64,000 nt of DNA from a virus, in IMG/VR virus record IMGVR_UViG_3300021371_000007, positions 1 through 64,000 of that record; one strand, written 5' to 3'. Below the pieces are notes generated by a model. That model saw nothing but the letters and a program-made list of their open reading frames with translations, did not search any database and had not been told where the DNA came from. Below, one piece after another: positions 9,554-61,345 of the stretch; within the stretch, counting starts at the first letter, position 1, and every line of letters begins with the position of its first letter. Made by a program: the position numbers and the translations under genes.

Positions 9554-10819
9554 ATGTTAGTGACTCTATTAGAAATTAAAGAGTTTTTAAAAATAAAACT
9601 AGATAATGATAGTGAAGATAGCAGATTAAGATCTATAAATTCGTATGTATCTAGTTTAATAGAATCTTACTGTGGCAGAGTAATATCTTCAGGTAATTAT
9701 ACAGAATATTTTAACGGAGGAGTTTCCTCTGTTTTTATTAAGAATCCTCCTATTAACTCTGTACATGAAGTTTCTCACTATACTGGAAATTCTTATACTA
9801 CTTTAGGTGGGCCAGGTTCTTTAGGACAACAAATAGAAATAGAAGGCTCTTCACACAAAATTACTTCTTTAGGTAATGCTAAAACTAGTAAAAGAGTTAA
9901 ACAATTTGGCATTTCTAGCCTACATTTAGCTGAGGCAGGAGACTACTTATCAGTAAGCAGTTCTGATGATTTTAATTTAGGTACTGAACCCTTTACTATA
10001 GAGCTTTTCATACGCCCTGCAAACTTAAATAATTCTACTTTTATATCTAGAAATGATAATGATAATGATAACTGGGAGCTTTCATATGATTCTAGCAATG
10101 GTGTATTTTTTAGAGCAAAAAGTGATGACATAGAAACAGCTTATATATCCGGCACTACTGTGTCTGTAAATACTTTTACTCATATAGCAGTAGTTAAAGA
10201 AGATACACAATTAAAGATATATCAAAATGGAAATCAAGTAGGGTCTTCAGTAGCTCATGCTAATTCAATTCCTAATTTATCTTCCTCTTTAGAAGTAGGA
10301 AGAATATCTCAAACAGATAATAAAAACTTCATTGGGTATATAGATGATATAAGAGTTTCTTGGAATGCTAAATACTCGAGTAATTTTAGTACGTCTTTAC
10401 AAGCTGCAGCATCTGACGAGGATACTAAATTATTAATTCCTTTTAACGAAGGCGCTAATAAAACAGATATAACTGACTTTTCTAGAAAAGTAAATGAGTA
10501 TGTGTGGTACCCTGATACGGGTGAGGTTAGTTTTGACTCTGGGATGGGTAGTGGCTCCCCTAGTTTAGGATTTTTTAATCCTAGAAAATTTAATAATTTT
10601 ACTAATGGAGTTAGAGTTACTTACAACGGGGGTTATGCTTCTGTTCCTAATGACTTAAAACTAGCTTCGTTAGAGATGATAAAAGTTCTCTATAAAGGAA
10701 GAGAGGGAGCAAAAAGCGTATCTCTTCAAGGAGATAATTCTTCTTCTCATGACTTAAGTTTAGATGGTTTTCCTCCTCAAGTTAGAAGAGTTTTAAATCT
10801 TTATAGGCTGCCCATGTAA
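9554..10819 (+). CDS. Head-tail adaptor (gp6/gp15-like) with inserted LamG/concanavalin-A-like domain
   Basis: N-terminus LVTL.EIKEFL...D..L......S.LIE.YCGR; C-terminus V.VTY.GGY..VP.DLKLA; middle FTIE.FI.P..HIAVV......IY.NG..F.GYIDDIRVS. Confidence 0.8.
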   Translation: MLVTLLEIKEFLKIKLDNDSEDSRLRSINSYVSSLIESYCGRVISSGNYTEYFNGGVSSVFIKNPPINSVHEVSHYTGNSYTTLGGPGSLGQQIEIEGSSHKITSLGNAKTSKRVKQFGISSLHLAEAGDYLSVSSSDDFNLGTEPFTIELFIRPANLNNSTFISRNDNDNDNWELSYDSSNGVFFRAKSDDIETAYISGTTVSVNTFTHIAVVKEDTQLKIYQNGNQVGSSVAHANSIPNLSSSLEVGRISQTDNKNFIGYIDDIRVSWNAKYSSNFSTSLQAAASDEDTKLLIPFNEGANKTDITDFSRKVNEYVWYPDTGEVSFDSGMGSGSPSLGFFNPRKFNNFTNGVRVTYNGGYASVPNDLKLASLEMIKVLYKGREGAKSVSLQGDNSSSHDLSLDGFPPQVRRVLNLYRLPM

Positions 10820-12279
10820 TGATATCTGTATTAGCTTTTATGGATGGAAAAAAATTAGAAAAAGCTCTTAGCGAAGTAAAAGCTAAAAGTCCTTCAGTTA
10901 AATTAGGCGTAGTCGGTGAAAGAATTACTAAAGGAATTTTTAAAACTAGTAGAGAAGCTACTACAAGAAGCGGTAAAGCCGACATTGTAGGTGTACCTTC
11001 TAAAAATGTTTTATCAGTTATTCAAGCAATAGAAGGTAAGAACTCTCCTACCGTAGCGTCATTAAACGATCTTATAAATGATTCTATGGGGGTTAAGTCT
11101 TTTGATATAGAAGCTAAAGCCACAGGAAAGCTATTAGGAGGTACTGGATTTGCAGGAAGTAAAAGAGGTACTTTAAAAGTAACTGGAGCTACTGCTAGTC
11201 TCAATCCTAGAGGTCAAATAGATATTGATTATATAGAAAGACAAAGAGTATTAATAACAGAGCTAGTAGAGCTAGGTATGACTAACAATACAGGTAGGGT
11301 ATCTAAAATAAATAAGCTATTCGAAGATTTAAGAATAGAAGTTGATGGTTCTTATACTTCTAACGACTTGAAAGAGCTACAAGACGAAATATTTAAAGTA
11401 GTTGGAGGTTCTAGAGGTAAAGCTGTTATTAGAAATGCTTATGATAAAGTTATGAATGACCCTAAAAAGTTTAGACAGTTTATGGATGGACCCTTTGGTA
11501 AGCTTATAACAAATAAAGTTACTAACTTAACAGCACAAATAAATGTTAAGGATACTAAGTCTGATAATACTTTAACTTTTTTTCAAACTTTTATAGGTTT
11601 AAAATTTACTAGTAAAGATATAGTTAGAAAAAAAGGGTCAACAGGTTCTTATTCTTTCTTTTTAAGTAGCGCATTTGAAAAAAAATTATTAGAGGAAACT
11701 AGACGTAAGCTTGAGCAAAATGCTATAGGAGTTATAGAAGAAGATATAAATAAAGTATTTAATATTAGTGGTAAGACAACTTTAAACAATATACTAAAAC
11801 GCCCTGGCAGCTTAAAAGAAATAGTTGACTCTTTGACTTTTGATCTTAATGTTCAAGTACCTAGCGGAGGATCTATAGCCCTAAACTTTGGTATAACGGG
11901 TACTAAACTTTTTGATGATATAAACGCTAAAACTGCTAGAGCTTTAAGTAATAATTTAGTAATATCATCTAAAGTACGAAAAGGCAGGTTTGCTTCTGCT
12001 GCTCAACTAACTTCTTTATTACAGATAGAAGTACTAAGCAGAATGAGAAAATCTGGAAGACCTAAACCTCCTACGCTTACTAACAGGTCGGGTAGGTTTG
12101 TTGAAAATTTAGAAATAGCCCAAGTTAATTATAAAAATTCTATAATTAACTATTATTCAATGCCTCTATATTACTCATTAGAGGAGTATGGGTATGATGT
12201 TGAAAATTTAATTGAAGGTAGTATAAGAGATATAACGCAAAAACTGTATTCTCGTCAGTTTAACTTGATACGTGCTTAA
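10819..12279 (+). CDS. Tail completion/neck protein (T5 p143-like C-terminus)
   Basis: Position between adaptor and tail terminator; C-terminal L..RSGRF...L motif; basic composition. Confidence 0.6.
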   Translation: MISVLAFMDGKKLEKALSEVKAKSPSVKLGVVGERITKGIFKTSREATTRSGKADIVGVPSKNVLSVIQAIEGKNSPTVASLNDLINDSMGVKSFDIEAKATGKLLGGTGFAGSKRGTLKVTGATASLNPRGQIDIDYIERQRVLITELVELGMTNNTGRVSKINKLFEDLRIEVDGSYTSNDLKELQDEIFKVVGGSRGKAVIRNAYDKVMNDPKKFRQFMDGPFGKLITNKVTNLTAQINVKDTKSDNTLTFFQTFIGLKFTSKDIVRKKGSTGSYSFFLSSAFEKKLLEETRRKLEQNAIGVIEEDINKVFNISGKTTLNNILKRPGSLKEIVDSLTFDLNVQVPSGGSIALNFGITGTKLFDDINAKTARALSNNLVISSKVRKGRFASAAQLTSLLQIEVLSRMRKSGRPKPPTLTNRSGRFVENLEIAQVNYKNSIINYYSMPLYYSLEEYGYDVENLIEGSIRDITQKLYSRQFNLIRA

Positions 12280-12345: not shown

Positions 12346-12801
12346 ATGTCTCAAAGACGAGATATAATAAAAACATTAATTGATAACTTAATATTAATAG
12401 ATGGTACTGGCTCACCTTTTGGGGGTTATGTATTTAAAACTAGTGTGCATGAAAATGTATATAGAGGCTTTAAGCCATTAGAAGAAATTAATGACTTTCC
12501 CTCAATTTATATTGTTCCAGGAGCAGAAATAAGAGATTATAACAGTACTCTTGGAGGAACTACTATTAATTCTTTACTTCCCGTAGTGTTGCGATGCTAT
12601 ATTTACGATGAAGAAGACGAATTAGTAAATGAACATATAAATGATATTACACAAGATATTGAACATATTATTTATAGTTTACCAACGACTAATGAAATCC
12701 TAGACTTAACATTAACGTCTATAAACACAGATGAAGGACTTCTAACCCCCTATGGAATTGTAGAATTACAAGTACAAGTTCGTTATGAAGTCACCTTATA
12801 A
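12346..12801 (+). CDS. Tail terminator protein (T5 p142-like)
   Basis: NVYRGFK.LEEINDFP, I.TDEGLL.PYG..E; precedes tail tube gene. Confidence 0.75.
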   Translation: MSQRRDIIKTLIDNLILIDGTGSPFGGYVFKTSVHENVYRGFKPLEEINDFPSIYIVPGAEIRDYNSTLGGTTINSLLPVVLRCYIYDEEDELVNEHINDITQDIEHIIYSLPTTNEILDLTLTSINTDEGLLTPYGIVELQVQVRYEVTL

Positions 12802-12812
12802 GGAGATAATAA

Positions 12813-14105
12813 ATGCCCAATTGCGGTCCTAATACACAGATTAACCTTCAGAGAAACACTGAAGTTTTTTGGTCAACTATTGACTTGAATGGCGGAGGCG
12901 TATCGGCTTCAATGACGCCTGACAACACTTGGAGAGTAGAAGTTTTAGCTGGTTATGCTTTTAACCAGAGTGCTACTAACCAAGATATTACTACTTTAGA
13001 ATCAGGTAATACACCTGACAGAGCTACACAAAGATTTAACACTTCAGTTAACCCAGTAGAATGGAGCATGAGTACTTATGTCCGTCCTACAGGGATGATA
13101 ACTACTGATGGTCAAGACTCGCCCACAGGTAATTCTAAACCAGTATCAGACTGGTTCTTATGGCAGTCTATGCTATCAAATAATGCTCCAGCGGCAGCAG
13201 GAGTAGAGACTAGTTCTTGGGAAAATAATGGTATTTTTCACTTAGGACATAGAGGCTTTGGCGATAATGCTGATGTAGTTGCAGCTTCCAATGCTAATGT
13301 TACTGCTCACAGCTCTAACTTCCCAACCATGAAAGAGTATTCACTTTACTTTAAAGTGGATAACGTAGTATATCAAGTTGGTCAAGCAGCGGTTAACGAA
13401 GGATCTATTGACGCAGCTATTGATTCAATTGCTACTACTTCTTGGAGTGGTTTTGGTACTAACTTGTTTGAACTAACAGGAGGCACCAGAGACGAGGCTA
13501 TTGCAGTATTTGGAGGCACATTAAACGACGGTTCTACAGCAGCAGCTAATAGTTCTACTGATGTAGGAAATTCAGCAACTCAATCTTACCATCCATTTGG
13601 TACTTCTAAAGTAGCTGGTTCTGATATATCATCAGCGTTTATTAAGAATAGATTAAGTTCTATTGCAGTAACATCGTCTGCTTCTGGAGCATCAAAAGCT
13701 TATACATTCCCAGTAACTGGGTTAAGCTGGGGATACAACAACAACGCTTCTTATTTAACACCAGAAGAATTAGCGTCACTTAACTCACCTATTGGTCAGT
13801 TTACAGGTGCTAAATCAGTAACAGGTAGCTTTACTGCGTATTTACGTGCAGGAGCAAACCAATCTGCTGAGTTCTTAAAAGATATTGTTACTAACACCGC
13901 GGTGCAAACTAAAGGTGCAAGTGCTAACCTACAAATCGGTGGTACAACAGCTCCTTACTTTGCGGTAAATATGCCGTCAGTACAATTTGACTTCCCATCA
14001 CACTCAATTGATGATGTTGTGGGTATTACAGTTGATTTCTTAGCACAAGAGACAGATCCTACTTGTGGTGACGAATTCACATTCTTTGTTAGCTCAACTA
14101 GCTAA
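12813..14105 (+). CDS. Tail tube (major tail) protein, T5 pb6-like
   Basis: L.RNT.VF.ST, DIT..ESG..P.R...RFN.S.N..EWS.STY..P, FIKNRLS; strong AAGGAG ribosome site. Confidence 0.88.
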   Translation: MPNCGPNTQINLQRNTEVFWSTIDLNGGGVSASMTPDNTWRVEVLAGYAFNQSATNQDITTLESGNTPDRATQRFNTSVNPVEWSMSTYVRPTGMITTDGQDSPTGNSKPVSDWFLWQSMLSNNAPAAAGVETSSWENNGIFHLGHRGFGDNADVVAASNANVTAHSSNFPTMKEYSLYFKVDNVVYQVGQAAVNEGSIDAAIDSIATTSWSGFGTNLFELTGGTRDEAIAVFGGTLNDGSTAAANSSTDVGNSATQSYHPFGTSKVAGSDISSAFIKNRLSSIAVTSSASGASKAYTFPVTGLSWGYNNNASYLTPEELASLNSPIGQFTGAKSVTGSFTAYLRAGANQSAEFLKDIVTNTAVQTKGASANLQIGGTTAPYFAVNMPSVQFDFPSHSIDDVVGITVDFLAQETDPTCGDEFTFFVSSTS

Positions 14106-14116
14106 TAAAAATTAAA

Positions 14117-14252
14117 AAATTCATGAAAGTTGAGGGGTTCATGAATTTATTATCACTAGGAGACAGCTATTCTTAGCAAGCAGCAAACATCCCCTCACTT
14201 GTTGTACGTTAGATCGAATAGCTGTCTCTTTTTAACTTAATATAGAGGGGAT
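14117..14252 (+). ncRNA. Structured intergenic cis-RNA with two hairpins and complementary loops; second hairpin is terminator-like
   Basis: 11-bp stem 14117-14127/14138-14148; 13-bp stem 14160-14172/14216-14228 followed by T5; loop-loop and loop-SD complementarity. Confidence 0.6.
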
Positions 14253-14259
14253 AAATCCT

Positions 14260-14691
14260 ATGAGTATGATTAAAAATTTAATGATTAACGAAAAAGTTGT
14301 CGAAGTGGAATTTCCAGATAGCGATAATTTTTATGTTAGCTTAACTTATTTAAACAGAGAAAAATTAACAAAAATTAGAAATAGATCTTTAACTATCAAA
14401 TTTAACAAACGTTCTCGCCAAAGAGAAGAAGAAGTAGATAACGAAAAGTTTCTCGAAGAATATGCTAGAGAAGTTGTTAGAGGTTGGAGAGGTCTTACAA
14501 TCAGAGAATTAGCAAGGCTAATGCCTATTGAGACTGCTGGAGCTAACTTAGAGCAAGAAGTTCCGTATTCAGAAGAAGACGCGCTAGAGCTTTTACGAAA
14601 CTCTACTATCTTTGATCAGTTTGTCACAGACTGTCAGAATGATTTCGAAGTCTTTGAGAAAGATAAGACAGACTCACAAGTAAAAAACTAA
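14260..14691 (+). CDS. Tail assembly chaperone (gpG-like)
   Basis: Lies between tail tube and tape measure genes; ..V.GW.GL.. motif; ends in slippery A AAA AAC TAA. Confidence 0.8.
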   Translation: MSMIKNLMINEKVVEVEFPDSDNFYVSLTYLNREKLTKIRNRSLTIKFNKRSRQREEEVDNEKFLEEYAREVVRGWRGLTIRELARLMPIETAGANLEQEVPYSEEDALELLRNSTIFDQFVTDCQNDFEVFEKDKTDSQVKN

Positions 14692-15056
14692 GACGCTACA
14701 TATCAGAATCATTGCAGTCTGGGGGTATAACCAAAGAGCAATATTTTATGATGTGTGAGCAAATGGGTACTACTCCCATAGAGGAAGAAATACCTGTAGA
14801 TTATTCTGACCTAAGTGACGAGTGTCAAATAGTACTAGCTATATTTAATATACTACCAGATAGTATTGGAGGTATGAGTGGTGCTTGGTTGGGAAAAGAC
14901 TATTCTGGTCTTAGAACATTTATGGATATATACGGTATTCAAGATGAGATGTTGTTTTTAAACTTATTAACAGTATTAGTTCAGGAAACTTCTGAGCATT
15001 ACGCTAAAAAACAAAAAGAACAACAACAAAAATCTAAACTTAAAGGTAGAAAATGA
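14682..15056 (+). CDS. Tail assembly chaperone extension (gpT-like), read through a -1 frameshift
   Basis: The -1 frame is open from the slippery heptamer AAAAAAC (14682-14688) to TGA at 15056; no good independent start or SD. Confidence 0.75.
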   Translation, partial: KKLRRYISESLQSGGITKEQYFMMCEQMGTTPIEEEIPVDYSDLSDECQIVLAIFNILPDSIGGMSGAWLGKDYSGLRTFMDIYGIQDEMLFLNLLTVLVQETSEHYAKKQKEQQQKSKLKGRK

Positions 15057-18000
15057 TTGGCAGGCAATATTAATACTAACGTTAATCTTAACGTTAAATC
15101 AACAGGCACTAAACGAGCAACTAAAGATATAAATGCTTTAAACTCTGCTCTCCGTAAAATTGGTGCTGCCTCAGATAACTCTACTAAAGGGTCTGATAAG
15201 TTAAACAGATCTACTACTAGATTAGGACAGTCTTCTGCTTCTGCAGGCAGGCAGTTCTCAGCACAAGCCGCAGGACTTGGTGGGCTCGTAGGAGCTTACG
15301 CAGGTGCTGCGGCTACTGTTTTTGCACTACAGCAAGCTTTTTCAGCATTAAATAGAGCTGCCCAAGTAGATAATATTATTAGAGGTACACAAACTCTTGC
15401 TGCTAAAGTAGGCGAGAACGGTAATCAAATATTACAAAGCTTACAAGATATTACTCAGGGACAGGTAGCGCTAGGTGAAGCTGCAGAAAAAGCCAACCTT
15501 GCTTTATCTACAGGTTTTAGTACAAAGCAAATAGAACAGCTTGCTAATATATCTACTAAAGTTTCTGTTGCTTTAGGAAGAAACTTATCTGATGCTTTTG
15601 AAAGACTTACTAGAGGTGCTGCAAAACTTGAACCAGAACTTTTAGATGAACTTGGTATATTTACTAAGCTAGAACCAGCTACTAAAGCATATGCTAAAGA
15701 AATAGGAAAAGCAGTAAATGACTTAACAGAATTTGAGCGTAGACAAGCGTTTGTTAATGCTATTATCGAAGAAGGTAATAGAAAATTTAGTGAGATTGAT
15801 ACTAGTGCTCCCTCCGCACAAAAAAGCCTTAATAGGCTTAGTGCTACTTTACAAGATTTAGGACACAAATTCGGTGTTTTAGCCGCAGAAGCTTTAGTCC
15901 CTGTTATTGACTTTTTTACTAAAGACTTTACAGGGGCTATTTCTGTTTTTGCGCTAGTAGCTAGACAGTTAGCGTCTTCAGGTCTCACATCACTAACTGC
16001 GGGTATTAATTCATTTTCGGCATCTTTAGATTCAAATATAGCTAGATTAGGAGATCAAATATCTGCTTCTAAAAACTCCCAACAAGCTATGACAGACTTC
16101 TCAGAGTCAGTAAAAAATAATAATAACTTTATGGTATTAGGTAATAAAGCTCAAGCAGAACAAGCTTTAAAATTTAAAGGTATGGGCGCGGCATCTACTT
16201 TAGCCGCTACAGATTTAAAATCTTTTATTGCAGTACAACAAGAACAAATTAACCTTGGAGCCTCAAGACTAGTTCAATTAGAGAAAGAAAATAAATCTTT
16301 AATTGCTAGATCAAAGCTAGGACCCCTTACTAGTCCCGCAGATATTGCAGCTCTTAAATCATATAGCGCTGAAAGTGAAAAGTTACAAGCAAACCAATTT
16401 ATATTAACTAAAAGAATTAATGACGCTAACGTTGCTTTAGTGGCTCAATCAACTAAGTTAAAAGCTGTGGCTGTGGCCAGTAGGGTTGCAGCTGTATCTG
16501 TTAGGGCTTTGACAAATGCTTTTTCTGTGTTACTACGAGTTTTAAATGTAGCACTGTTAGCTTTAAGTTTTGGTCCTTTACTTTTAAATTTAGTAGGACA
16601 GATAGGTATATTTAATACTGCTATAAACTACTTAAAAGATACTTTTTTAGCCTTAAGAAATGCTAATAAAGATTTAGAGCTAGGCATAAGAGCTTTAGGG
16701 GCTAGATCTGAAGTAGGTATAAGCAAAATAACTGAACAGTACAAACAATTAGGCCTTTCTGCTAGAGAAGCTGCAGACGCACAAGAAAGTGCTATTAAAA
16801 GAGTAGCGGCTGCGCTAAAAGATAATGATTCTAAAATAGAAGAAGTATTTGGTAAATTTAGTGGTGCAGCAACCATAAGTGGGTTAATGGCTATAGCAGC
16901 AGGAGTTACTGCTATTTTTAGTGCTGCAGCCGCAGGCATAGCCGCTATTGTTGTAGGGGGTCTTAGTTTAATAGATATGTCTCTAGCATATCTTTTTGGT
17001 TATGAATCTATAAGTAAAAAACTTGCTAGTAGCGCAGCAGAGGCTTTAGGAGGCCCATCAAAGACCCTTAAAGAGGGAGAAGAAGCAGCAGCCTCTTTAA
17101 GAAAAGAAGTGGAAGAGCTACAAGACTCTTTTAATAGAACAGGAGACTTAGCCTTATTACAAGAAATAGATCAAATAAATGCGTTTAGAGATGCTATACT
17201 AGATACAGATTCAGCAGTTACTATGTTTACAGGAACTTTATCTAGACTTACAGGTCAAGACGCTTCTTTAATTGATGAACTATTAGGTACTACAGAAGCT
17301 GATTTTAGTGATACATCGTTAAAATTAGGAGGATTAGAGATAGCAACTAGAGAAGTAGGTAAAACTTTTACTGTTGCAAATGAGTCTATAGGATTAATTT
17401 TACCTACTTTTGTAGGATTTGAGTCTACCCTACTTAGAGCTAATAATGCTATGAGAGATGGCTCTGTAAGCAGTAAGTCTTTCGTAGAAATTATTAATAG
17501 TTTAAGAACTTCTCAATCTAACTTATCAGATACTATAGATATTGTTACTTCTAGAATATCTATACAAGAACAAAAGATTAAAAAGCTAAACGCAGAAGGA
17601 ACTGAAGAAGCTAGAGTGAGAGCAGATGAATTAGTAGACTCTAATAGAGATTTAATAACTACTTTAGGAGCTTTAGAAACTAGGTTTGAAGAAACTACTA
17701 ATAGATTAAATGAGTTATCTGAGGCAGGAGATCAAGCTAATAAATCTTTAGTTAAATTTGAAAATATACAAAAAGTATTTAAGTCAGCAGCAGATACTAT
17801 TACTAATGCAAAGTTCAAAGGGCTATTTGTTGAAACAGCAGAGGGCCTTGAGTTTGCAACTTCTTCTACGCAAAAATTTGTTAATCAGGTTAATAGCTTA
17901 AAAAATGAGCTTGTAGGCATAGGAGGTCTTACCGATTTAGAAGATAATGTTGCAGCTTTTGAAAAATTAGGTCAAGTAATTAGAAGTGATGATGGTAGTG

Positions 18001-21000
18001 TTACTACAACTACTGATAGAGCTGCAGAAGCAGTAAGAGAATTAAATCTTGCGGTAGCTAATAGAGAGTTTATGGAAAAATCTATTAAAGGTCTTTTATT
18101 AGGTCAAGTAGAGGCTGTAAAACAACAAACTAGAGAGCTTGAAAAGCAATCAAGAATAGCTAGACAACAACTTCAACAGGCAACTTTAAAAGCAGAAATA
18201 GACATATCTAAGGCGCGACTTACTTCTCTTAATAAAGCTAGAGCAGAAGAAATAAGTATTAGAAAAGTAAAAGCTGACGGTGCAGCAATATCTAGTGATC
18301 TAGCAGCAGCAGAGTTATCTATAGCTAGAGATATCTTATCTGAGAGAGAAAAGTCTATAGATATACAACAAGAACAGCTTAAAATAGTATCTCAAATAGC
18401 AGAAGAAAGAATAAAAGGAGCTAAAGAAGAGCTATCAGCACAAAAACAAATGATATCTTTAGCTAAAGAGGGTCTAGCCTTTGATGACTCCTTCTTTGAC
18501 AAAGATATTACTAAGATACTAAATTTACTTGCTGACATAGGATCAGCTTCTTTAGACGTAGAAATATCTCAAAAAGAGACAGATTTAGCAGAAAAGCAAG
18601 CAGAAACAGCAGCTCAATTAGCAAAGTTAGAAGCAAATAAGCAAACTTTTGCAGCAGAAATACTGGCAAAAGAACAAGAACTATCTTTACTAGAGATAGA
18701 CTCTAGAGTTGCAGATCTTAGTGCTCGTATAGAGATTTCAAGAGCAGAGAGACAAAATGAAATTGATTCCCTCACTGAGAGACGCAGCATAGCTGAGTTA
18801 GAAGCACAACTAAAAAGAGAGACTTATGCAGCTAATCTAGAAAATAAAAGAGAAGAGTTAAAAATACTAGACCAAAAAAGACAAGATACTATAAAACTAG
18901 TAGATTCTTTTAATAATCTAACTACTGATATGGGTACAGAGTTTGATACCTTTATATCGGAATTACAAGCAACTTTAAGTACTCAAAAAATAGCACTAGA
19001 AGCAAAAGAGACTATTGTAGTAGACCCTTCTGATGACAAAAGTGCTGATCCTGTACAATCTAGTGCAGAGGCATTAAATAAATCCGCAGATTCTCTAGAA
19101 ACTGTTGCTAAAGAAACATCTACTTTAGTAGAAGAAGTTACTAACACAGGACAATCTTCTTTAGACTCTTTACAGGCGTTAGAAACTTCTGCACAAGCTA
19201 CTAATGAGATAGCTAAAATAACTAATACTACGTTAGATACCACTATTTCTAACAAAAAAATAGAAAATGATTTAATAAGTAAAAACGAAGATGAAAGACT
19301 TGCTGCTTTAGGAGCTGAAAGTGCTGCACTAAAAGAGAAACACGCAATTGAGACTGAGAATAGTAATGCAGCACTAGAAACTGCAAACAAAACTGCTGAA
19401 TTAGAAGAAGAAAAAGCCAAAAACGCCGAAGCTGCTTTACAAGCTCAAATAAAAGCAAACCAATTAGCTCAGAGACAAGCTGCTTTTCAGATTATGAATC
19501 AAACAGGAACCTTACTGAGAGAGCTATCAGTAGGTAGGGCTGAAAAAGCAAGAGATAAAGCAGCAGAGAGTAGAGATAAGGTACTGGATAAACAGGAGGA
19601 AGTACTATCTAGAGTAAGCTCTTTGAGAAGTTCTGAGGCCGATGCTATGGCTGGAGCTGTTGATATTTTAAAAGAACGCAGAGCCTTAGAAAGAGATATA
19701 ATTTCTTCTATTGCAGACAGTGATGCTAGTGGTTACTTAAAAACTACAGAAGCTTATTTTCAAAACTTAAATGCCTTAGATGAGCAAACTAAAGTATTAA
19801 GTGAAGCTCAAGCTAATAGAGCTATAGCAGAAGCAGAGCTAGCTGTTCAAGACTATAAAGTTATAGAAGCGACTAATAACTTATCTAGTGCAGAAAAAGA
19901 TTTAGAAAACGCACACAACAGTTTAGTAGGTAAAACAGGAGATGTACTTCAAAAATTTGGAAGCTTAGGTAATAGTATGGTTAGCTTAGTAGGCTTAGCC
20001 CAACAACTAACGGGCGCCTTTACTACTCTAGGTAATACTTTAGTAGGCTCAGTAACTGGAGAGAGTAATAATCAAATTACTGAAGCAGTAAAAGATGGTT
20101 TTGATAAGTCAAAAGCTGCTGAAACTTCTGCTCAAGTTACAGGAAATGTAGTTACAGACTTAAAAAACGTTCTTGTAGGTAGTGTAAGAGAGTTAGGTGG
20201 TGCATTTGAAAGATTTAATCAAGAAAGTATTGGAGCTGCAGGAGGCGCTGCTCAATATTTTGCAGAATCTGACGGTAGTTTAACAGATTTTGCTGCTGCG
20301 GGCTTAGGTAAAGCAGTTACTCCTATGATAACTGGGTTTATAGAAGATTTTATTACCACAGCTTTAGGTCCTGTAGGTGGTATAGCTATGACTGCTATAG
20401 ATTTTATAGCAGGAGACTTTATATCTGGAGTTATTGGTGACGCGCTAGAAGGTATTAGTAACTTTTTTGCTCCTCGTAAGTGGAATAGATCAACTGTTGA
20501 TTTAACTACTGGTAATATAACAGATAGAAAAGATAGTGGAGTTGATCTGGATCCTGTAGCTAAATCAGCATTTAAAATGAATCAAGCATTAGAAACTGTT
20601 ACTGGAGGTCTTCAAAGATTTACTGAATCACAAGCAATACTAACCACTAAAGGTTCAGATATTAGAGAAAGATTCTTAGAGCTAAGGGGCGGTGGAGCTG
20701 AGGCAGTTAGATTAGACTTTAATAGCGAAAACTTTGGTAAGGACTTATTTGAAGGACTTATTAAAGGCTTAGATCCTAGATCTTTAACGGAAGACATGAA
20801 AACCGCTATAGGTAATATGGACTTCGGTAAAGAGATAGAAGATAACATGAAAGACCTTAATTTTGCTAAAGGCTTTGATGGTTTGATGACGCAATTAGAA
20901 TCTGCAGGAGGTAAATTTACTAATCTTGGTGAGTTTATAGAATTAGTAAATATTAAAGCAGAAGCTGCAGCTGCTTCATTTGCGCAAGGAGCCTTACAGC

Positions 21001-24000
21001 AAGCATTAGACTTAATAGAAGAATCTGGAAGAGTGTTCGGAGAACAATCTGAACAAGTACGAAGAGCAAAAGATGCAGCTCAGAATATGGTTTTAGCGCA
21101 TTTAGATTTACATGTAGCGGAAGATCGCACTGTAAGCCTACTTAGTGATACGTCTACTAATTTGAGTGGCATGGCTATGGCTATGGAGACTGTAAAAGCA
21201 GAAATGAATGCTATGCAAGAAGCTATTGAGGCTACAGGGGTTAATGCTGACGAAGCTTCTAGAATAATAGAAGAAGGCATAACACTTAAAATTAGACAAA
21301 TGGCTCAAGACTTTGGGGATGCGTTAAGTGACGTAATTCAGTTTGGTGATAGTCTAGAATCAAGCGCTGTTCAAGGATTAAAAGATGTTTTAGAATATCA
21401 ACAGGCTATAGTAAGAGATGCTGCCCATATTCAAGAACAGCTAGGTAATGGTTATGATTTTATAGCTCGTGCAGAAAAAGCTTTAGCTATTCAAAGAGGT
21501 AATATAGTAGCTAAAGCTTCAGATCAAGAATTAAAAGCTCTTAGTGATTTAGCAGGTGCAGGACAAGAATTTAGTAACGCTGCTATGAAAGCAGCTACTG
21601 ATGCTGAAATAACTAGAAGAGTTATGAATAATATATTTGAGGGGGCAAAACAGCTTACTCAAGCACAAAGAAGTTCAAGATCTGTAGGAAGAGGTCTGGC
21701 TTTTGCTGAGGGAGGTTTTGTACCAGGTACCCCTGAACAACAAAATAAAGACTCAGTGCCTGCATTACTAATGCCTGGAGAGTATGTATTAAATAAAGAA
21801 GCAGTTAAGAATGTTGGAGTAGGAACTTTAGCTGCTTTTAATTCTGGAGCTTTTAAAAAGATGGAAGCTGGGGGTAGTACTACTGGAGGAGTCATTACTC
21901 CTAATAAAATAGCTACTGATGCTTTTGGGGGTACTTTTGGTATAGACCCTGCTACTCAAGCACTATTCAAAAACTTTAGTCAAGATATGACTACTACTTT
22001 AGAGTTTTATGAAGCTAGAGAGCTAGTTGCTCAAGCTAATATAGAACTTTTTGAGACTTATTCAGACCTTAGAGAGGCTGCAGGGGCTAGCAATGATCTT
22101 ATGAATGCTTTTGGTCTTATAGTAGATCATATAGAGCGAGGGGAAATAGGTCTCGCTACTGCAGTATTTGATATAGCACATAATCTAACAGAAGCCACTA
22201 GCGCTACAGAAGCTTATACTCTTTCTCTATCTCAAAATCAAGCACAACAAGCTTTAGCTTCTGCCGGTGTTAATTTACAAAATGAAAATATAGACACTTT
22301 AACAGATAACTTAACTAGTTTCTACACTAGTATAAATACGTCTTCTGTAACTGCTGGAGATTTAGAAGCTGTAATAAGTCAAATGAATATAGCGCTATCT
22401 CAAGGAGTTATATTTGGTAGTGAGTATGGATCAATACTAGATGATGTTACTTCAGATTTTGATAATGCTTTAGCAGCCTTAGATGAATATTCTTCTTTCT
22501 TCTTAGAGCTTCAAGATATTACTTTAGACCCTACAGGAATTATAAGCTCTATAAGATCTGTTCAGTATGCATTTGAAGATGGTATGAATACTATGACAGA
22601 TGCGGTCACAGATGGATTTATAGATACAATAGAAGCTGCTACTGTACAAGTTAGACTTAATAAAAGACTAGAAAAAGAAAGAATAGATTTAATTAAAAAC
22701 TCTTCAGATGAGCAACTTAGAATAATTAGAGATACACAAGATTCAATTGCAGACGCAACTTTTAAAACAGGCGCTATAGCAGAAATAGCTGTTAGAAAAA
22801 TACTAGCAGTATCTTCTGCTTTTGGTACCTTTGAACAAGGATTAGTAGGTTTTTATAATAACTTAGTACAATCATCAGATAACTTTACTAGAACTTTAAG
22901 TGCTTCTGTAGTTAGTAGTATACAAGCAGCAGGTATAGTAATAGATGATGAGTTAGATACTAATTTCTTAGGTACACTAACTAATTTTGCTACACTATCT
23001 AAAAGTGGTTCTTCAAGTGTTCAAGCACTATCTACTGCGTTAGAACAATTAAATTATCAGTTAGAGATTGGAGAGACTATAGACACTGACACTTATAAAG
23101 AGGGAGTGGCCTTTTTACAGTCTTCCTTTATGGAGTTTTTAGATTTATTTAGTGGTATGTCTAATGCCTTTAGAGAAGCAGAATCAAACCTTGATAATTT
23201 TAAAACTACTTTACACTCTTCTTTCACCTCTATAACTGATGAACTAGAAGCTTTACTTAAAACTTTAGTAACTACTTATAGAACTACTTTAGCAGATGTT
23301 AAGACTATGTATCAAGAAGCAGTATCTCAACAAAAAGAAGCAGAAGAGTCATTATATGGAGTATTATTTAGTGCGCAAAATGCCTTTATAGATGCTGGAG
23401 GACATTTAGATGGTCACATATCTAGAATAGATGATATTGTAAAAGGTTTAGATCCTACATATCAGGGATATGCAGGATTAGATCAGTATTTAAAACAACT
23501 TCAAATAGATGTTCAAGCAGGTATCACTTCTTTAGGCGATATAAACACATCTCAATCTTTAGCAGCACTACAAACTAATCTTTCTAATAGTTTAGCAGAC
23601 TTAGCCATACTTCAAACACTTCCTGATTCTGCAGATAAATTTGTAAAAATAAGTAGAAAACTTTCAGAAATAGATGATATTAATAATCAAATATCTGCAG
23701 GAACTCAATCTACAGACGCACTAAAAGAAGCTACGTTAGACTTACTAAAAGTTGAAGAAGAGCTAAACTTTAATAATACTACTGCAGGACTACAACAAGT
23801 AGACTTAACCTTACAAGGTATAAGTCAAGATTTGCTTCAAAATGCTATAGATGCTAGAACTGCATTTAATACTTCTAATCAACTTTTAGATGATTTCACT
23901 ACAGCTTTAAACGCTAATTTTACTCCTAATTTAGTAGCTTCTACTACTGCTGTTAATAGCAGCACATTAAGTCTGTCTTCCTTTATAGCAGAGATGCAAT

Positions 24001-27000
24001 CTGCTAATCAAGTATTTTCAGACATAACTACTGCGGTTTCTGCTATAAATGCTACAGGAATTCAAGAAATAATAGATACCTTAGATGTAATATCTAACCC
24101 TACGGATGAAGTGAATGTAGATGTAGTAGATACTAGTTATAGAGGTATTTCAGATTTAAACGATATTTTAAGTAACTTTACTGGCATAGTCGCTGCCAAA
24201 ACTGCTTTTGAAAATCTATATGGATCAATAGCTGCAGTAACTCCTGTTTTACCTTTACAAGAATTTAATGACTTAAATGCTGAATTTATAAATTTAGAAA
24301 ATACAATAACTTCATTACTAGGTACTATGGGTAATAATAGTATTGCGGATATGGATGCAACTTTTGAGCAATTTGTATTAGACTCTATAGCTTTATTACA
24401 GAATCCTTTAACTTTATCAGGAGTTTCTACTTCAGGTTCTACAACTAATATAGCTGCTCAAGCTATTACAGGTTCAGGAGCTGTTAATAATCCTCAAATA
24501 AGTACTCAAACTTCTTTACTTCAACAAATTTTAACTCAAGGTTTAGGGGTTCAGAGTCCTGGCTACTTATTCTACACTAATCAAATATTAGAGCAAATAA
24601 GAACAGTATTAGAAGATATGTTAGTATTACAAGGAGGCACTCTACCTACTTATGCTAATATCACTTCTACCTTTACTGCTCCTACAGCAACTGGAAGTAC
24701 TACTACTGCTACTGTGCCTACAGGAACTACTACAGGATTACCTAGTTTAAATCAATCAGGAATACTAGGCCTTACGGGTCAGCTATTTGAAGTAGAAGAG
24801 CCTATAACTAGACCTGCTGATTATTTTTATATTGTAATACCTAAACTTGTTGCTATAGACGAATTTTATATAGTAGACCCTATTGAAGTAGATTATGAGT
24901 TTTTCTTTGATCTAACTCCTGTATCTGTTACTTCTATAGACACTGGTAATGGAGGGGATCATTTCTTTAATATAACTACAGTAGATACTGATTTTGATAA
25001 ATGGTTTAATGCTCCAACTTTAATAGACACTGAATATAGTAAATGGTTTAATGATCCCACTGTAATAGATACTAACTTTAATAAGTGGTTAAAAATTGTA
25101 GAAGAAGAAACAGGTATTTTTGATTGGGTCACAATAACTAAGTCTGCAGCTAATTATCAAACATTCTTTGAGGCACCTACTAAGGTAAATCACTCTGTAG
25201 CTACTTGGTATAACTTACCTACCAAGTTAGATAATACAGCTAATTTATGGTATAACTTACCTACCAAGAAAGATATAGACTATACAGATTGGTTTACGTT
25301 AAATAAAGTAGCTGTTAAATACTCGCAGTTTTTTGATCCCGAAGATAAAATAGCTTTAACAGATCATATAGATCCTGTTACAGTAGCTGCAGATTCTTTA
25401 TTTACTATAAACAAAAACTCAAAAGATGCTGATGATTTATACTCTATAAACTCTATAGAAAAAGACTATTCAACCTTCTTTAAAATAACAGCTAAAGATT
25501 TTGATTATACAGATTTCTTTAAAATAGTTGAAAAAGATATTACTGATTTTATACAAATATCAAAATCCACAAAGACGGCTATAGAGCTATTCACTATTCA
25601 AAAAAGTGAAGTAACAGGTAGCACTTTATTTTCTATAACAGCAGATTCAGTAGCAGCGTCTACACTTATAACTGTAAAGGCCAATAATAGAATACAAGTA
25701 GGAGCAGATGAGATATTTGATAAACCTACCTCAAAAATGGCTTTAAGCTTGTCAGATATATTTAGTAATTATGAAAGCGGTGCTTTTGATTGGACAAAAG
25801 CTGTAATAAGTGTAGGCCAAGTAATTAATGAGGACAAGCTTAAAGAAGGTCTGGCAAATAAGGCTATTCTTGCTACGGGTGATATTTTTGATAACTGGAA
25901 CGGTTCAGGCTTTGATATTGATAGTGTTGACATTAGCTACTTAGATTTATTTAACTTAGCAGTTACAGATATAGAATATACAACACTATTTAAACTGCCT
26001 AATGATGCAGGCAAAGAAAGTTTACACTGGAGTAGCTGGTTTAAAGTAGATCCTGCAGATAAAATGGATGCAAGAGATTTATTTACTTTTATATCTCCTG
26101 AACCCGTATCCGCCCTTGATTTATTTAATCCTACATCTCAATCGGTAGATGGGTCTGCTCTTTTTGTATTAAGTAATACTTTACAAAAAATAGATGCTAA
26201 TAATCTTTATGACATTGAAAAAGAAACTAAAGCGGCTACTGACTTCTTTACTATTACAGGAGTGCAACTTAAAGGCGCAGACTTTATTGATTTAAGTTAC
26301 TTAGCCGACTCTAAATATATAGCAGAAGCTAAGAATGTATTAGACGTTACCGGTAAGCTTACTGTTCAATCTTCTGATGTATTCAAAGTATCCGGTACTT
26401 TAGATAAAACAGCTAATCAAGTATATAATATAACCAAGAGTGATAAAGCAGGAGCTGCTTTCTGGGAAGTTACTGCTAGTGAGCAATCAGGGGCTTCTTT
26501 CTTTACGCCTACTAAAAGTGAATTAGCAGGTTTAAATTTCTTTAGTCCTACTCAAAGCACTATAACAGCTAACGATTTATTTAACTTTAATAAAGTAAAA
26601 ATAGATGTTAGCACTATGTTTGAATCTGAGTTATCTACTCTAACAGATGCAGTTAATGATCAAGATAGCTACTTAATTACTAACTATGGCAAATTAGAAA
26701 CTATAAAAAGTTATACTAAAGTATCTAGTGAGAAGCTTACAAATATCGCAAAAGCAGATTCAGATTTTCATGCTGCTATATTAGAAGATACTGCCTACTT
26801 AGAAACTATTGCTACCTCTTTAGGAGATTTAGCTGATATTAAAGCTAATACTGCCGATATTAAAACTAATACTTCTGTAAACGTATCTAAGCTTACTAAA
26901 ATAGAAAATAATACAGACGGTATAGAAGAGAAATTAGATCATATTTCTGATGATTTAGATGGTATTGCAAAAGACTTGGCAGATAAATTAGATCATATTT

Positions 27001-28319
27001 CTGATAATTTGGATACTTTAGAAAAAACTGCAAACGCTATTGAAGGGTATGTATTATATCTACCTGGCATGTCTACAGAGCTTACCGATCAAGGAAAAAC
27101 TTTGGTTACTATAGATAGTGTATTAGACGCTATAGAAATAGACACTTCAAATATGGTTACCTACCTAGAAAGCATAGCTACTAATAGTGCATATCTTAAA
27201 ACAATAGATCAAGATACAAGCCATTTAAAAACTAATGCAGATAATAAAATCTCTCATATTTCTGGTAATTTAGATGATATAATAAGTAATACAGATAAGA
27301 ACAGAACTCGCTATAAATACTCAGGCGCTACATCAGTTAACTTAGCAACTGGAGGTCCTGTAGTGGGGCCAGGAACTTCTACTAGCGACTCTATTCCTGC
27401 CAACTTGTCCAACGGTGAGTATGTAATAAAAGCTTCTTCTGCTAAAAGTATGGGTAGAGAGGTGTTAGACATGCTTAATTCTACAGGGTCTATATCCTCA
27501 CTAGGTAGAAAAGGAGATACAGAATTAGCGCATATTAACACTGTAGAAGCACAAATGCTTAAGTCAATAGGTGGTTCAGGCTCTAAAAATCCTCTTTCTG
27601 GTCTTAAAGAGTTTTTCTTTGATGACTTTAATCCTTTAACAGGTCTTAAAGACGCTGCACTCTCTGCTGCTAAATCAATTATAAGTAACACAAATAATCC
27701 AGAAGGTTATAGGCCAGAAAAAATAGGTAGTAATGCTAGTTGGAATACCGCAAACTTTGCTAATAATACTTTTGCTAAAAAAGTACTAGTAGAGCTTACA
27801 AGATATATAGCAGCTAATAGAGATGGAAAAGCCTTTACTCACTCTCAAGCCTTTAACTCTATTTCTGATGCATGGTTTGAGTATGATAAACCTAATATTA
27901 TACAATTTAATAGAGGTTCCTCGTTTAACAACGGTATCAGAGGTACAAGTAGTATAAGTAGCTTAATAACAAGACTTCAAAATGCTTATCCTTCTTTTGC
28001 TAACGGTGGTGAGATTTCAGGTGCTGGTACTAGTACTAGTGACTCTATAATGGCTATGTTGTCGGACGGTGAGTATATTATTAGAAATTCATCTGTTGAC
28101 AATGTGGGGGTAAATACTTTAGACTATATAAATAATACGGGACAACTACCTCAAGGCGACACTAATGTAGAAGTAAATATTACTAATAATGGGTCTCCAG
28201 TGGACGTAGAAGCTGAGCCTAAAGTTAGTATAATAGACGGTAAGGTAGTGGTAGATGTTATACTTAAAGATTTAAGAACTAATGGTCCTATTAAGAAGAC
28301 TATTAAGAAGATAAAGTAG
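15057..28319 (+). CDS. Giant tape measure protein (4420 aa)
   Basis: T5 pb2-like N-terminus (R.F.A.A..LGGL..AYA.AAA.VFAL..AF, ELLDELGI), hydrophobic segments, long coiled coils, GG.V.G.GT.TSDS..A.LS.GEY motifs; follows chaperones. Confidence 0.9.
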   Translation: MAGNINTNVNLNVKSTGTKRATKDINALNSALRKIGAASDNSTKGSDKLNRSTTRLGQSSASAGRQFSAQAAGLGGLVGAYAGAAATVFALQQAFSALNRAAQVDNIIRGTQTLAAKVGENGNQILQSLQDITQGQVALGEAAEKANLALSTGFSTKQIEQLANISTKVSVALGRNLSDAFERLTRGAAKLEPELLDELGIFTKLEPATKAYAKEIGKAVNDLTEFERRQAFVNAIIEEGNRKFSEIDTSAPSAQKSLNRLSATLQDLGHKFGVLAAEALVPVIDFFTKDFTGAISVFALVARQLASSGLTSLTAGINSFSASLDSNIARLGDQISASKNSQQAMTDFSESVKNNNNFMVLGNKAQAEQALKFKGMGAASTLAATDLKSFIAVQQEQINLGASRLVQLEKENKSLIARSKLGPLTSPADIAALKSYSAESEKLQANQFILTKRINDANVALVAQSTKLKAVAVASRVAAVSVRALTNAFSVLLRVLNVALLALSFGPLLLNLVGQIGIFNTAINYLKDTFLALRNANKDLELGIRALGARSEVGISKITEQYKQLGLSAREAADAQESAIKRVAAALKDNDSKIEEVFGKFSGAATISGLMAIAAGVTAIFSAAAAGIAAIVVGGLSLIDMSLAYLFGYESISKKLASSAAEALGGPSKTLKEGEEAAASLRKEVEELQDSFNRTGDLALLQEIDQINAFRDAILDTDSAVTMFTGTLSRLTGQDASLIDELLGTTEADFSDTSLKLGGLEIATREVGKTFTVANESIGLILPTFVGFESTLLRANNAMRDGSVSSKSFVEIINSLRTSQSNLSDTIDIVTSRISIQEQKIKKLNAEGTEEARVRADELVDSNRDLITTLGALETRFEETTNRLNELSEAGDQANKSLVKFENIQKVFKSAADTITNAKFKGLFVETAEGLEFATSSTQKFVNQVNSLKNELVGIGGLTDLEDNVAAFEKLGQVIRSDDGSVTTTTDRAAEAVRELNLAVANREFMEKSIKGLLLGQVEAVKQQTRELEKQSRIARQQLQQATLKAEIDISKARLTSLNKARAEEISIRKVKADGAAISSDLAAAELSIARDILSEREKSIDIQQEQLKIVSQIAEERIKGAKEELSAQKQMISLAKEGLAFDDSFFDKDITKILNLLADIGSASLDVEISQKETDLAEKQAETAAQLAKLEANKQTFAAEILAKEQELSLLEIDSRVADLSARIEISRAERQNEIDSLTERRSIAELEAQLKRETYAANLENKREELKILDQKRQDTIKLVDSFNNLTTDMGTEFDTFISELQATLSTQKIALEAKETIVVDPSDDKSADPVQSSAEALNKSADSLETVAKETSTLVEEVTNTGQSSLDSLQALETSAQATNEIAKITNTTLDTTISNKKIENDLISKNEDERLAALGAESAALKEKHAIETENSNAALETANKTAELEEEKAKNAEAALQAQIKANQLAQRQAAFQIMNQTGTLLRELSVGRAEKARDKAAESRDKVLDKQEEVLSRVSSLRSSEADAMAGAVDILKERRALERDIISSIADSDASGYLKTTEAYFQNLNALDEQTKVLSEAQANRAIAEAELAVQDYKVIEATNNLSSAEKDLENAHNSLVGKTGDVLQKFGSLGNSMVSLVGLAQQLTGAFTTLGNTLVGSVTGESNNQITEAVKDGFDKSKAAETSAQVTGNVVTDLKNVLVGSVRELGGAFERFNQESIGAAGGAAQYFAESDGSLTDFAAAGLGKAVTPMITGFIEDFITTALGPVGGIAMTAIDFIAGDFISGVIGDALEGISNFFAPRKWNRSTVDLTTGNITDRKDSGVDLDPVAKSAFKMNQALETVTGGLQRFTESQAILTTKGSDIRERFLELRGGGAEAVRLDFNSENFGKDLFEGLIKGLDPRSLTEDMKTAIGNMDFGKEIEDNMKDLNFAKGFDGLMTQLESAGGKFTNLGEFIELVNIKAEAAAASFAQGALQQALDLIEESGRVFGEQSEQVRRAKDAAQNMVLAHLDLHVAEDRTVSLLSDTSTNLSGMAMAMETVKAEMNAMQEAIEATGVNADEASRIIEEGITLKIRQMAQDFGDALSDVIQFGDSLESSAVQGLKDVLEYQQAIVRDAAHIQEQLGNGYDFIARAEKALAIQRGNIVAKASDQELKALSDLAGAGQEFSNAAMKAATDAEITRRVMNNIFEGAKQLTQAQRSSRSVGRGLAFAEGGFVPGTPEQQNKDSVPALLMPGEYVLNKEAVKNVGVGTLAAFNSGAFKKMEAGGSTTGGVITPNKIATDAFGGTFGIDPATQALFKNFSQDMTTTLEFYEARELVAQANIELFETYSDLREAAGASNDLMNAFGLIVDHIERGEIGLATAVFDIAHNLTEATSATEAYTLSLSQNQAQQALASAGVNLQNENIDTLTDNLTSFYTSINTSSVTAGDLEAVISQMNIALSQGVIFGSEYGSILDDVTSDFDNALAALDEYSSFFLELQDITLDPTGIISSIRSVQYAFEDGMNTMTDAVTDGFIDTIEAATVQVRLNKRLEKERIDLIKNSSDEQLRIIRDTQDSIADATFKTGAIAEIAVRKILAVSSAFGTFEQGLVGFYNNLVQSSDNFTRTLSASVVSSIQAAGIVIDDELDTNFLGTLTNFATLSKSGSSSVQALSTALEQLNYQLEIGETIDTDTYKEGVAFLQSSFMEFLDLFSGMSNAFREAESNLDNFKTTLHSSFTSITDELEALLKTLVTTYRTTLADVKTMYQEAVSQQKEAEESLYGVLFSAQNAFIDAGGHLDGHISRIDDIVKGLDPTYQGYAGLDQYLKQLQIDVQAGITSLGDINTSQSLAALQTNLSNSLADLAILQTLPDSADKFVKISRKLSEIDDINNQISAGTQSTDALKEATLDLLKVEEELNFNNTTAGLQQVDLTLQGISQDLLQNAIDARTAFNTSNQLLDDFTTALNANFTPNLVASTTAVNSSTLSLSSFIAEMQSANQVFSDITTAVSAINATGIQEIIDTLDVISNPTDEVNVDVVDTSYRGISDLNDILSNFTGIVAAKTAFENLYGSIAAVTPVLPLQEFNDLNAEFINLENTITSLLGTMGNNSIADMDATFEQFVLDSIALLQNPLTLSGVSTSGSTTNIAAQAITGSGAVNNPQISTQTSLLQQILTQGLGVQSPGYLFYTNQILEQIRTVLEDMLVLQGGTLPTYANITSTFTAPTATGSTTTATVPTGTTTGLPSLNQSGILGLTGQLFEVEEPITRPADYFYIVIPKLVAIDEFYIVDPIEVDYEFFFDLTPVSVTSIDTGNGGDHFFNITTVDTDFDKWFNAPTLIDTEYSKWFNDPTVIDTNFNKWLKIVEEETGIFDWVTITKSAANYQTFFEAPTKVNHSVATWYNLPTKLDNTANLWYNLPTKKDIDYTDWFTLNKVAVKYSQFFDPEDKIALTDHIDPVTVAADSLFTINKNSKDADDLYSINSIEKDYSTFFKITAKDFDYTDFFKIVEKDITDFIQISKSTKTAIELFTIQKSEVTGSTLFSITADSVAASTLITVKANNRIQVGADEIFDKPTSKMALSLSDIFSNYESGAFDWTKAVISVGQVINEDKLKEGLANKAILATGDIFDNWNGSGFDIDSVDISYLDLFNLAVTDIEYTTLFKLPNDAGKESLHWSSWFKVDPADKMDARDLFTFISPEPVSALDLFNPTSQSVDGSALFVLSNTLQKIDANNLYDIEKETKAATDFFTITGVQLKGADFIDLSYLADSKYIAEAKNVLDVTGKLTVQSSDVFKVSGTLDKTANQVYNITKSDKAGAAFWEVTASEQSGASFFTPTKSELAGLNFFSPTQSTITANDLFNFNKVKIDVSTMFESELSTLTDAVNDQDSYLITNYGKLETIKSYTKVSSEKLTNIAKADSDFHAAILEDTAYLETIATSLGDLADIKANTADIKTNTSVNVSKLTKIENNTDGIEEKLDHISDDLDGIAKDLADKLDHISDNLDTLEKTANAIEGYVLYLPGMSTELTDQGKTLVTIDSVLDAIEIDTSNMVTYLESIATNSAYLKTIDQDTSHLKTNADNKISHISGNLDDIISNTDKNRTRYKYSGATSVNLATGGPVVGPGTSTSDSIPANLSNGEYVIKASSAKSMGREVLDMLNSTGSISSLGRKGDTELAHINTVEAQMLKSIGGSGSKNPLSGLKEFFFDDFNPLTGLKDAALSAAKSIISNTNNPEGYRPEKIGSNASWNTANFANNTFAKKVLVELTRYIAANRDGKAFTHSQAFNSISDAWFEYDKPNIIQFNRGSSFNNGIRGTSSISSLITRLQNAYPSFANGGEISGAGTSTSDSIMAMLSDGEYIIRNSSVDNVGVNTLDYINNTGQLPQGDTNVEVNITNNGSPVDVEAEPKVSIIDGKVVVDVILKDLRTNGPIKKTIKKIK

Positions 28320-61275: not shown

Positions 61276-61345
61276 TTTTATTCCCCTCTGGTTTCAAATG
61301 TTTTGTGTTATTAATAAATGTGAAACTTTTTGTTTCGATAAGATG

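Follow-up and report, generated by a model that had tools for sequence, protein, structure and literature searches.

The spacer between the major tail (tube) protein gene and the tail assembly chaperone gene of an uncultured marine T5-like phage carries an element that, judged from comparative sequence evidence, is a real structured RNA, and this RNA is carried by a large, uncultured, mostly marine clade of T5-like phages. It consists of two hairpins (P1 and P2) with complementary loops; a T-rich tract follows the second hairpin in most relatives, and the Shine-Dalgarno (SD) sequence of the chaperone gene resembles the loop of the first. The spacer RNA probably limits the output of the chaperone and tape-measure proteins relative to that of the tube protein. 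We favour, with a probability of roughly one half, an intercistronic valve in which a leaky terminator would be combined with masking of the chaperone ribosome-binding site.

The window (i.e., the whole stretch of 64,000 nucleotides that was analysed) belongs to an 81,946-base virus contig with 32.9% G+C. The part of the tail module concerned comprises the following genes:

12346-12801, upstream of the tube gene: tail terminator gene
12813-14105, plus strand: major tail (tube) protein gene, 430 aa (phrog_3575 major tail protein, E 3.2e-52)
14260-14691, plus strand: tail assembly chaperone gene, 143 aa (phrog_313, E 3.8e-11; phrog_3914, E 4.1e-18)
14712-15056, in the -1 frame relative to the first chaperone gene: second tail assembly chaperone ORF (phrog_3914)
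15057-28319: tape-measure ORF of 4420 codons

The tube protein shares about 29-30% identity with the tube proteins of cultured Demerecviridae, and its gene is closed by a tandem stop, TAA TAA (14103-14108). A slippery heptamer A AAA AAC (14682-14691 region) is located immediately 5' of the chaperone stop codon (14689-14691); together with the -1-frame ORF at 14712-15056 it is, by its sequence, the usual arrangement predicted for G/GT-type programmed -1 frameshifting. Further upstream, a head-tail adaptor-like protein (9554-10819) contains an inserted Laminin_G_3/ConA-like domain (PF13385, E 4.3e-21).

The tube-to-chaperone spacer is 154 nt long from stop codon to start codon. Its parts, together with the SD region at its end, are:

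14117-14148, plus strand: hairpin P1, with a perfect stem of 11 bp (14117-14127 with 14138-14148) closing a loop of 10 nt, L1; -8.1 kcal/mol
14131-14137, plus strand: G-tract UGAGGGG in L1, putative kissing partner and SD look-alike; all 90 variants share its core GAGGGG
14160-14228, plus strand: hairpin P2, 69 nt, with three helices and a 12-nt loop, L2 (14187-14198); -30.0 kcal/mol
14160-14172 with 14216-14228, plus strand: P2a, the outer stem, 13 bp, perfect
14173-14177 with 14208-14212, plus strand: P2b, the middle stem, 5 bp
14180/1-14186 with 14199-14204/5, plus strand: P2c, the inner stem, 6-7 bp with one G.U pair
14191-14197, plus strand: C-tract CCCCUCA in L2, complementary to L1 and to the chaperone SD; its core is invariant in 90 of 90 variants
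14229-14233, plus strand: T5 run directly 3' of P2a, a tail of the terminator type
14245-14252, plus strand: chaperone SD region GAGGGGAU, nine bases 5' of the ATG at 14260; 8 bp are possible with 14189-14196

The hairpins, the loop tracts, the U5 run and the SD tract had all been described in the original prediction, and each of them proved exact to the base. Both hairpins are returned by RNAfold (minimum free energy -44.4 kcal/mol, z = -3.83), and none of 200 shuffled sequences folds as well. The three matching tracts had been held unlikely to arise by chance; indeed, a search of the window found the pattern at one place only, and 100 dinucleotide shuffles did not produce it. On the plus strand of the whole 81,946-base genome, GAGGGG is found ten times and CCCCTC six times. 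Motif search revealed no second copy of the element elsewhere in the genome. Note that the covariance model described below gave a single further match in the window, at 53473-53590 (minus strand, 28 bits), which appears to be coding sequence and was taken as chance.

Relatives were collected by scanning viral contigs with tube proteins, which yielded 34, 80 and 80 loci in three scans, the latter two sets being the best 80 of 344 and the best 80 of 163, respectively. The element is present in all 30 loci examined from the first scan (four more loci end inside the tube gene), in all loci read from the second except two whose DNA stops inside the element (L085, L104), and in 78 of 80 from the third, where the remaining two (L194, L195) run out about 30 nt or less from the tube gene. 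Every fetched locus that reaches beyond the tube gene carries the element. After collapsing, 90 distinct element sequences remained, from relatives with tube protein identities as low as about 47-52%, and the two hairpins are kept in all 90.

The stems are supported by compensatory changes in alignments of different origin. The first 48 variants were aligned by MAFFT alone, with no fitting to the structure, and this is the fairer test. Here, 91.1% of the cells are paired, as against 38-50% after sliding the partners by 1-3 columns; compensatory change is seen in 27 of 38 pairs, and none of 500 shuffles matches the observed paired percentage or covariation score. RNAalifold recovered P2 unaided, with 16 of 20 pairs compensatory. 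A covariance model built from the 90 variants gave one strong match per source (90 of 90, 74.6-137.4 bits), always on the plus strand and after the tube gene. In the corresponding model-fitted alignment of 90 variants, which is biased towards the model, 92.3% of the cells are paired (33-47% when slid) and 28 of 29 pairs are compensatory, including all 13 pairs of P2a, with 97.5% of its cells paired. For P1, compensatory changes are found in 10 of 10 pairs on the unfitted and in 7 of 7 on the model-fitted alignment. One pair of P2b is U.G in 61 of 90 variants, which an RNA read from the opposite strand would have as a mismatched C.A; the functional strand is therefore the mRNA sense, and an RNA on the minus strand was ruled out.

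To compare the pairing between the two loops, the variants were anchored on GAG in loop 1 and CUC in loop 2, both of which are invariant. From position -1 to position 5 there is hardly any variation (UGAGGGG with CCCCUCA). On the flanks, position 6 is occupied by GC in 64, AU in 9 and GU in 13 variants, position 7 by AU in 30, UA in 14, CG in 10 and GC in 6 (26 are unpaired), and position 9 by CG in 40, AU in 10 and UA in 5. Four pair types at one flank position require several independent compensatory events. A contiguous Watson-Crick helix between L1 and L2 is possible in all 90 variants (6-13 bp), and the G-run is as long as the C-run in 68 of them. The own partners form 9.0 bp on average versus 8.04 +/- 0.09 bp for shuffled partners (top of 2000 shuffles, 8.37), where the shuffles ignore relatedness and the resulting figures are not probabilities. 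The duplex energies point in the same direction (-19.45 kcal/mol for own versus -17.65 +/- 0.20 kcal/mol for shuffled partners), these values being upper bounds calculated for linear oligonucleotides that include stem flanks. Loop complementarity of at least 6 nt, the mark of a kissing interaction, is thus kept through evolution, as read from the aligned variants. For many relatives, the RNAfold structure of P1 has two or three G-tract bases paired within its own stem top, and the kiss would need to open those pairs. The original prediction had looked to relatives for covariation and for conserved loop tracts; among the 90 variants the stems and the loop flanks co-vary, and the invariant cores remain complementary throughout. 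We also considered L1 as the ribosome-binding site of a small ORF and rejected this, as 74 of 90 variants have no start codon at a distance of 2-12 nt downstream of the G-run.

The covariation of the loop flanks also bears on the question of whether the RNA is read out by a protein. The fold or the two G-tracts could be recognised by a phage or host protein, e.g. a repressor of translation or RNase III, for which P2 with its roughly 24 bp would be the substrate. Almost invariant unpaired A residues are present on both flanks of P2b, one factor could bind at both of the identical G-tracts, and P2, in which a bulge separates a lower from an upper stem, may resemble the RNase III sites of T7. However, no candidate protein was found, and the loop-flank covariation argues for RNA-RNA pairing over protein read-out. 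We hold a binding or processing site to be quite improbable.

The ribosome-binding site of the chaperone gene is unusual. GAGGGG lies within -20 to -3 of the chaperone start in 69 of 90 variants, but in only two of the 296 other ORFs (100 codons or longer) of these loci, which use GGAG (97) or AGGA (105). GGGG is missing from the chaperone SD in 19 of 90 variants. The chaperone SD is, by its sequence, a specific look-alike of loop 1 and complementary to loop 2. In the genome of the window, only one other gene has a GAGGGG ribosome-binding site (61283-61288), viz. a D5-like transcriptional regulator (phrog_323, E 1.3e-27; 60583-61288, minus strand); it was considered as a target in trans and dropped, since its homologues in three of three gene-bearing relatives have ordinary sites and the GAGGGG is therefore probably there by chance.

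This likeness could be explained by a purely translational three-way switch, which adds a trigger to the model of the original prediction and in which the C-loop would serve as anti-SD and loop 1 as anti-anti-SD, and transcription termination would be incidental. A ribosome terminating on the tube gene would then melt P1, the freed C-loop would mask the chaperone SD, and heavy tube translation would keep chaperone translation low. The specificity of the look-alike for the chaperone gene agrees with such a switch, as does the position of P1: the distance from the tube stop codon to the P1 core is 1-18 nt (median 7; at most 12 nt in 76 of 90 variants), so that, going by ribosome footprint sizes, P1 would lie within the footprint of a terminating ribosome and would be melted in most members. 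This short distance is the one lead to a possible trigger. In the window itself, the masked state appears to be the more stable one, as the loop-only duplex of L2 with the SD region has 8 bp and -15.6 kcal/mol, while that of L1 with L2 has 7 bp and -13.3 kcal/mol. A relative with 92% identity (L005) differs from the window in the SD as well as in the flank of loop 2, and the differences favour SD pairing over the kiss in the window, where SD pairing rises from 6 to 8 bp and the kiss falls from 9 to 7 bp, although this is a single case.

Several observations speak against the three-way switch. The SD is not co-adapted to its own C-loop (-13.25 kcal/mol for own partners versus -13.36 +/- 0.10 kcal/mol for shuffled ones), and in 12 of 48 variants no more than 4-5 contiguous bp can form between them. 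The kiss is stronger than the SD-L2 pairing in 82 of 90 variants, the window being among the eight exceptions. Furthermore, a switch of this kind has to accommodate the SDs without GGGG; P1 starts 14 nt after the stop codon in the window and 14-18 nt after it across the window's subclade, i.e. at the edge of the footprint; and the enrichment of T-rich tails (see below) is left unexplained. Taken together, we regard this switch as possible but doubtful.

Translational riboswitches can have expression platforms built of three segments, SD, anti-SD and anti-anti-SD. Similarly, the middle one of the three tracts in the spacer can pair with either of the other two, and the two pairings are mutually exclusive. 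In contrast to these platforms, there is no evident aptamer or ligand pocket, two of the partners are located in hairpin loops and would thus form a kiss rather than a nested helix, and the SD pairing is not co-adapted.

P2 has features of an intrinsic terminator. In the window, the G+C-rich 13-bp P2a is directly followed by the T5 run. Among relatives, at least 5 T are found in the 8 nt after P2a in 79 of 90 variants versus 8.4% of 18,000 random windows from the same loci, and at least 6 T in 52 of 90 versus 1.5%. The distance from the end of P2 to the chaperone ATG is 18-38 nt (median 23), which leaves no room for a promoter, implying that the downstream genes are reached by read-through from upstream. 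However, P2 is not a compact terminator with a short loop, as it has 69 nt, two interior loops and a 12-nt apical loop, and 11 of 90 variants keep the whole fold without a T-rich tail. The consensus terminator scan of the window did not list P2, presumably because its 3-8 nt loop rule excludes it. Twelve RNA-labelled runs contain part of the stretch; among the contigs of four of these runs, two cross the element (X1, 13771-14453; X5, 12416-15189) and others stop nearby, such contigs showing neither ends nor levels.

Terminators behind major structural genes are known from other phages, T-phi after gene 10 of T7 being one of them. For phage SPP1, a predicted Rho-independent terminator (11,255-11,304) is placed between the tube genes 17.1/17.1*, which end at 11,017 and 11,279, and the chaperone gene 17.5, which starts at 11,363 (PMC6316719); 17.5 has only GAGG as its ribosome-binding site, and the tube gene has AGGAGG (PMC6316719). 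Our element resembles such intercistronic terminators in its position directly after the gene for the most abundant tail protein (see PMC6316719 for SPP1 17.1/17.1*-17.5), in its G+C-rich stem followed by a U-run and in the lack of an own promoter for the downstream genes. It differs from them in its hairpin of about 70 nt, its three conserved helices, the pairing of its loop with an upstream hairpin and the occurrence of members without a U-run.

These similarities raise the question of whether the element is simply a terminator that also stabilises the 3' end of the tube mRNA. The kiss would then compact this end against exonucleases or aid the folding of P2, and the G-tract SD would be unrelated to it, e.g. 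a deliberately weak site. The enrichment of T-rich tails, the higher stability of the kiss in most variants and the missing co-adaptation of the SD pairing are all in line with this explanation, and SPP1 provides a precedent at the same place (PMC6316719). It fails, however, to explain why a rare hexamer that is missing from 294 of 296 other ORFs repeats loop 1 at 69 of 90 chaperone SDs, and why the whole fold is kept in the 11 variants without a T-tail. We consider a plain terminator unlikely.

The valve combines termination with masking. The whole 154-nt spacer would act in cis as one element of the late mRNA, with P1 presenting the G-tract just past the tube stop codon and P2 presenting the complementary C-tract, and the pairing of the loops would lock the two hairpins side by side. 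At the first level, the G+C-rich base of P2 and the U-run would form a leaky intrinsic terminator, which would provide the tube message with a stable 3' end and leave the downstream genes to be reached only by read-through; the SPP1 terminator at the same place is a precedent for this level. At the second level, in the read-through RNA, the C-loop would mask the unusual G-tract ribosome-binding site of the chaperone gene, and the P1 loop would be the decoy that normally holds the C-loop. Such a valve would divide the tube gene, whose product is needed in hundreds of copies per virion, from the chaperone, tape-measure and later tail genes, whose products are needed in few. The points against it are the 11 of 90 variants without a T-tail, the unusual length of P2 (about 70 nt) with its conserved apical part, the SD, whose pairing with L2 is not co-adapted and mostly weaker than the kiss, and the G-tract bases that RNAfold draws into P1 in many relatives. 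The mutually exclusive switch or attenuator put forward in the original prediction is borne out in part: the kiss, the T-tail in 79 of 90 variants and the SD look-alike in 69 of 90 agree with it, but the alternative pairing of the C-loop with the SD lacks co-adaptation, and the kiss is the stronger one in 82 of 90. By analogy with known systems, the element would work like an intercistronic attenuator, perhaps like an SD/anti-SD/anti-anti-SD platform.

Two further systems are worth comparing. The loops of the Guanidine-II (mini-ykkC) riboswitch are tetraloops that need guanidinium, whereas 6-13 Watson-Crick pairs are possible between the loops of our element without an evident ligand, and there is no Rfam match. 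What both have in common are two hairpins with a short linker and interacting loops upstream of a ribosome-binding site, and the two Guanidine-II hairpins have been proposed to kiss (PMC7544219). In the repZ/repA system of IncI1 and IncB/O plasmids, translational coupling depends on a pseudoknot, an activator of translation that an antisense RNA counteracts, and translation of the upstream ORF matters (PMC8053102). There too, the upstream ORF has a hairpin loop near its end, whose pairing partner is a distant tract close to the ribosome-binding site of the downstream gene (PMC8053102). The repZ pseudoknot is the nearest precedent for a loop at the end of an upstream ORF that acts on a downstream start. 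In contrast to repZ, the distant tract is here itself a hairpin loop, and the SD is a third partner.

The distribution of the element was followed beyond these scans. One strong match each is present in five long virus records, including one with a completeness rating of 100%, all their other matches having E values of at least 0.4. The element is also present in ten of ten metagenome loci (57.6-93.5 bits). The lowest score belongs to the most divergent member found (L217, 2752-2886; 57.6 bits), in which P1 is weak and almost lost; its kiss is still 8 bp, with C-G replacing the usual U-A at the flank, and its SD is AGGGGA. A context-free scan for the three tracts, which yielded at least 119 stretches, gave 10 model-positive loci among 80 loci searched. 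All ten are located in the tube-chaperone spacer, three being new (tblastn-checked) and seven lying on contigs already known. Indeed, in every model-positive locus the element is placed between tube and chaperone homologues.

The element had originally been connected with a very long tail. This special tie did not survive comparison: in five relatives (L203-L207) the same element precedes tape-measure ORFs of 1486, 1616, 1743, 1944 and 3900 codons (stop to stop). With ORFs from 1486 to 4420 codons downstream, it goes with long-tailed phages generally rather than with the 4420-codon giant specifically. Two adjacent hairpins directly upstream of such ORFs might also suggest a cis-acting antitermination RNA, comparable to the two-hairpin put RNA of HK022, which would make RNA polymerase resist premature termination across the very long tape-measure gene. 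However, the element has no similarity to any Rfam family, and a terminator-type tail within it fits poorly with such a role, which we hold to be highly improbable.

A nucleotide search of the phage collection matched no cultured relative. Two cultured Demerecviridae have neither a spacer after the tube gene nor a covariance-model match: in Vibrio phage PVo5 and Escherichia phage Gostya9, a minor tail protein gene (about 295 aa) starts 4-12 nt after the tube gene (L114, 2922-2935; L115, 2889-2894). A minor tail gene of this type is absent between tube and chaperone genes in the marine clade. Profile search revealed further tube relatives with weaker matches, one of which (P0147) is about 35% identical to the tube protein of the window. 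Intermediate clades were sought starting from this protein; two viral scans gave nothing, and a metagenome scan gave only members of the element-bearing family. A genome scan gave no match and hence no lead to the host. Searching by protein names turned up nothing.

The proposed comparison with Rfam was carried out and no family matched: with Rfam 15, positions 13500-15000 of the window gave five weak matches at E values up to 10, the best having 19.6 bits versus a gathering score of 35, and five diverse relatives (16,739 bases) gave no match at E values up to 1. Nor was a description of the element found in the literature searched. The element appears to be a well-supported new RNA family and a candidate for Rfam, whose mechanism we infer.

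Tailed phages make hundreds of tube subunits per handful of chaperone and tape-measure molecules, and control of this ratio is understood in few phages. The element sits at the exact boundary between these two expression classes, with unusually clean support from the comparison of relatives. As a compact and testable model, it offers a way in which a terminator and a decoy ribosome-binding site can be joined with a kissing-loop fold. Tentatively, and with less confidence than for the valve as such, it may even be a translation-sensing valve of an undescribed kind, in which each ribosome that completes a tube protein would melt the decoy hairpin beside the stop codon and the C-loop would then mask the chaperone site. 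If true, this would be negative translational coupling built into a terminator hairpin. The phage would keep a kind of count of the tube proteins made, and the synthesis of chaperone and tape-measure protein would be kept at a small fixed fraction of that of the tube protein.
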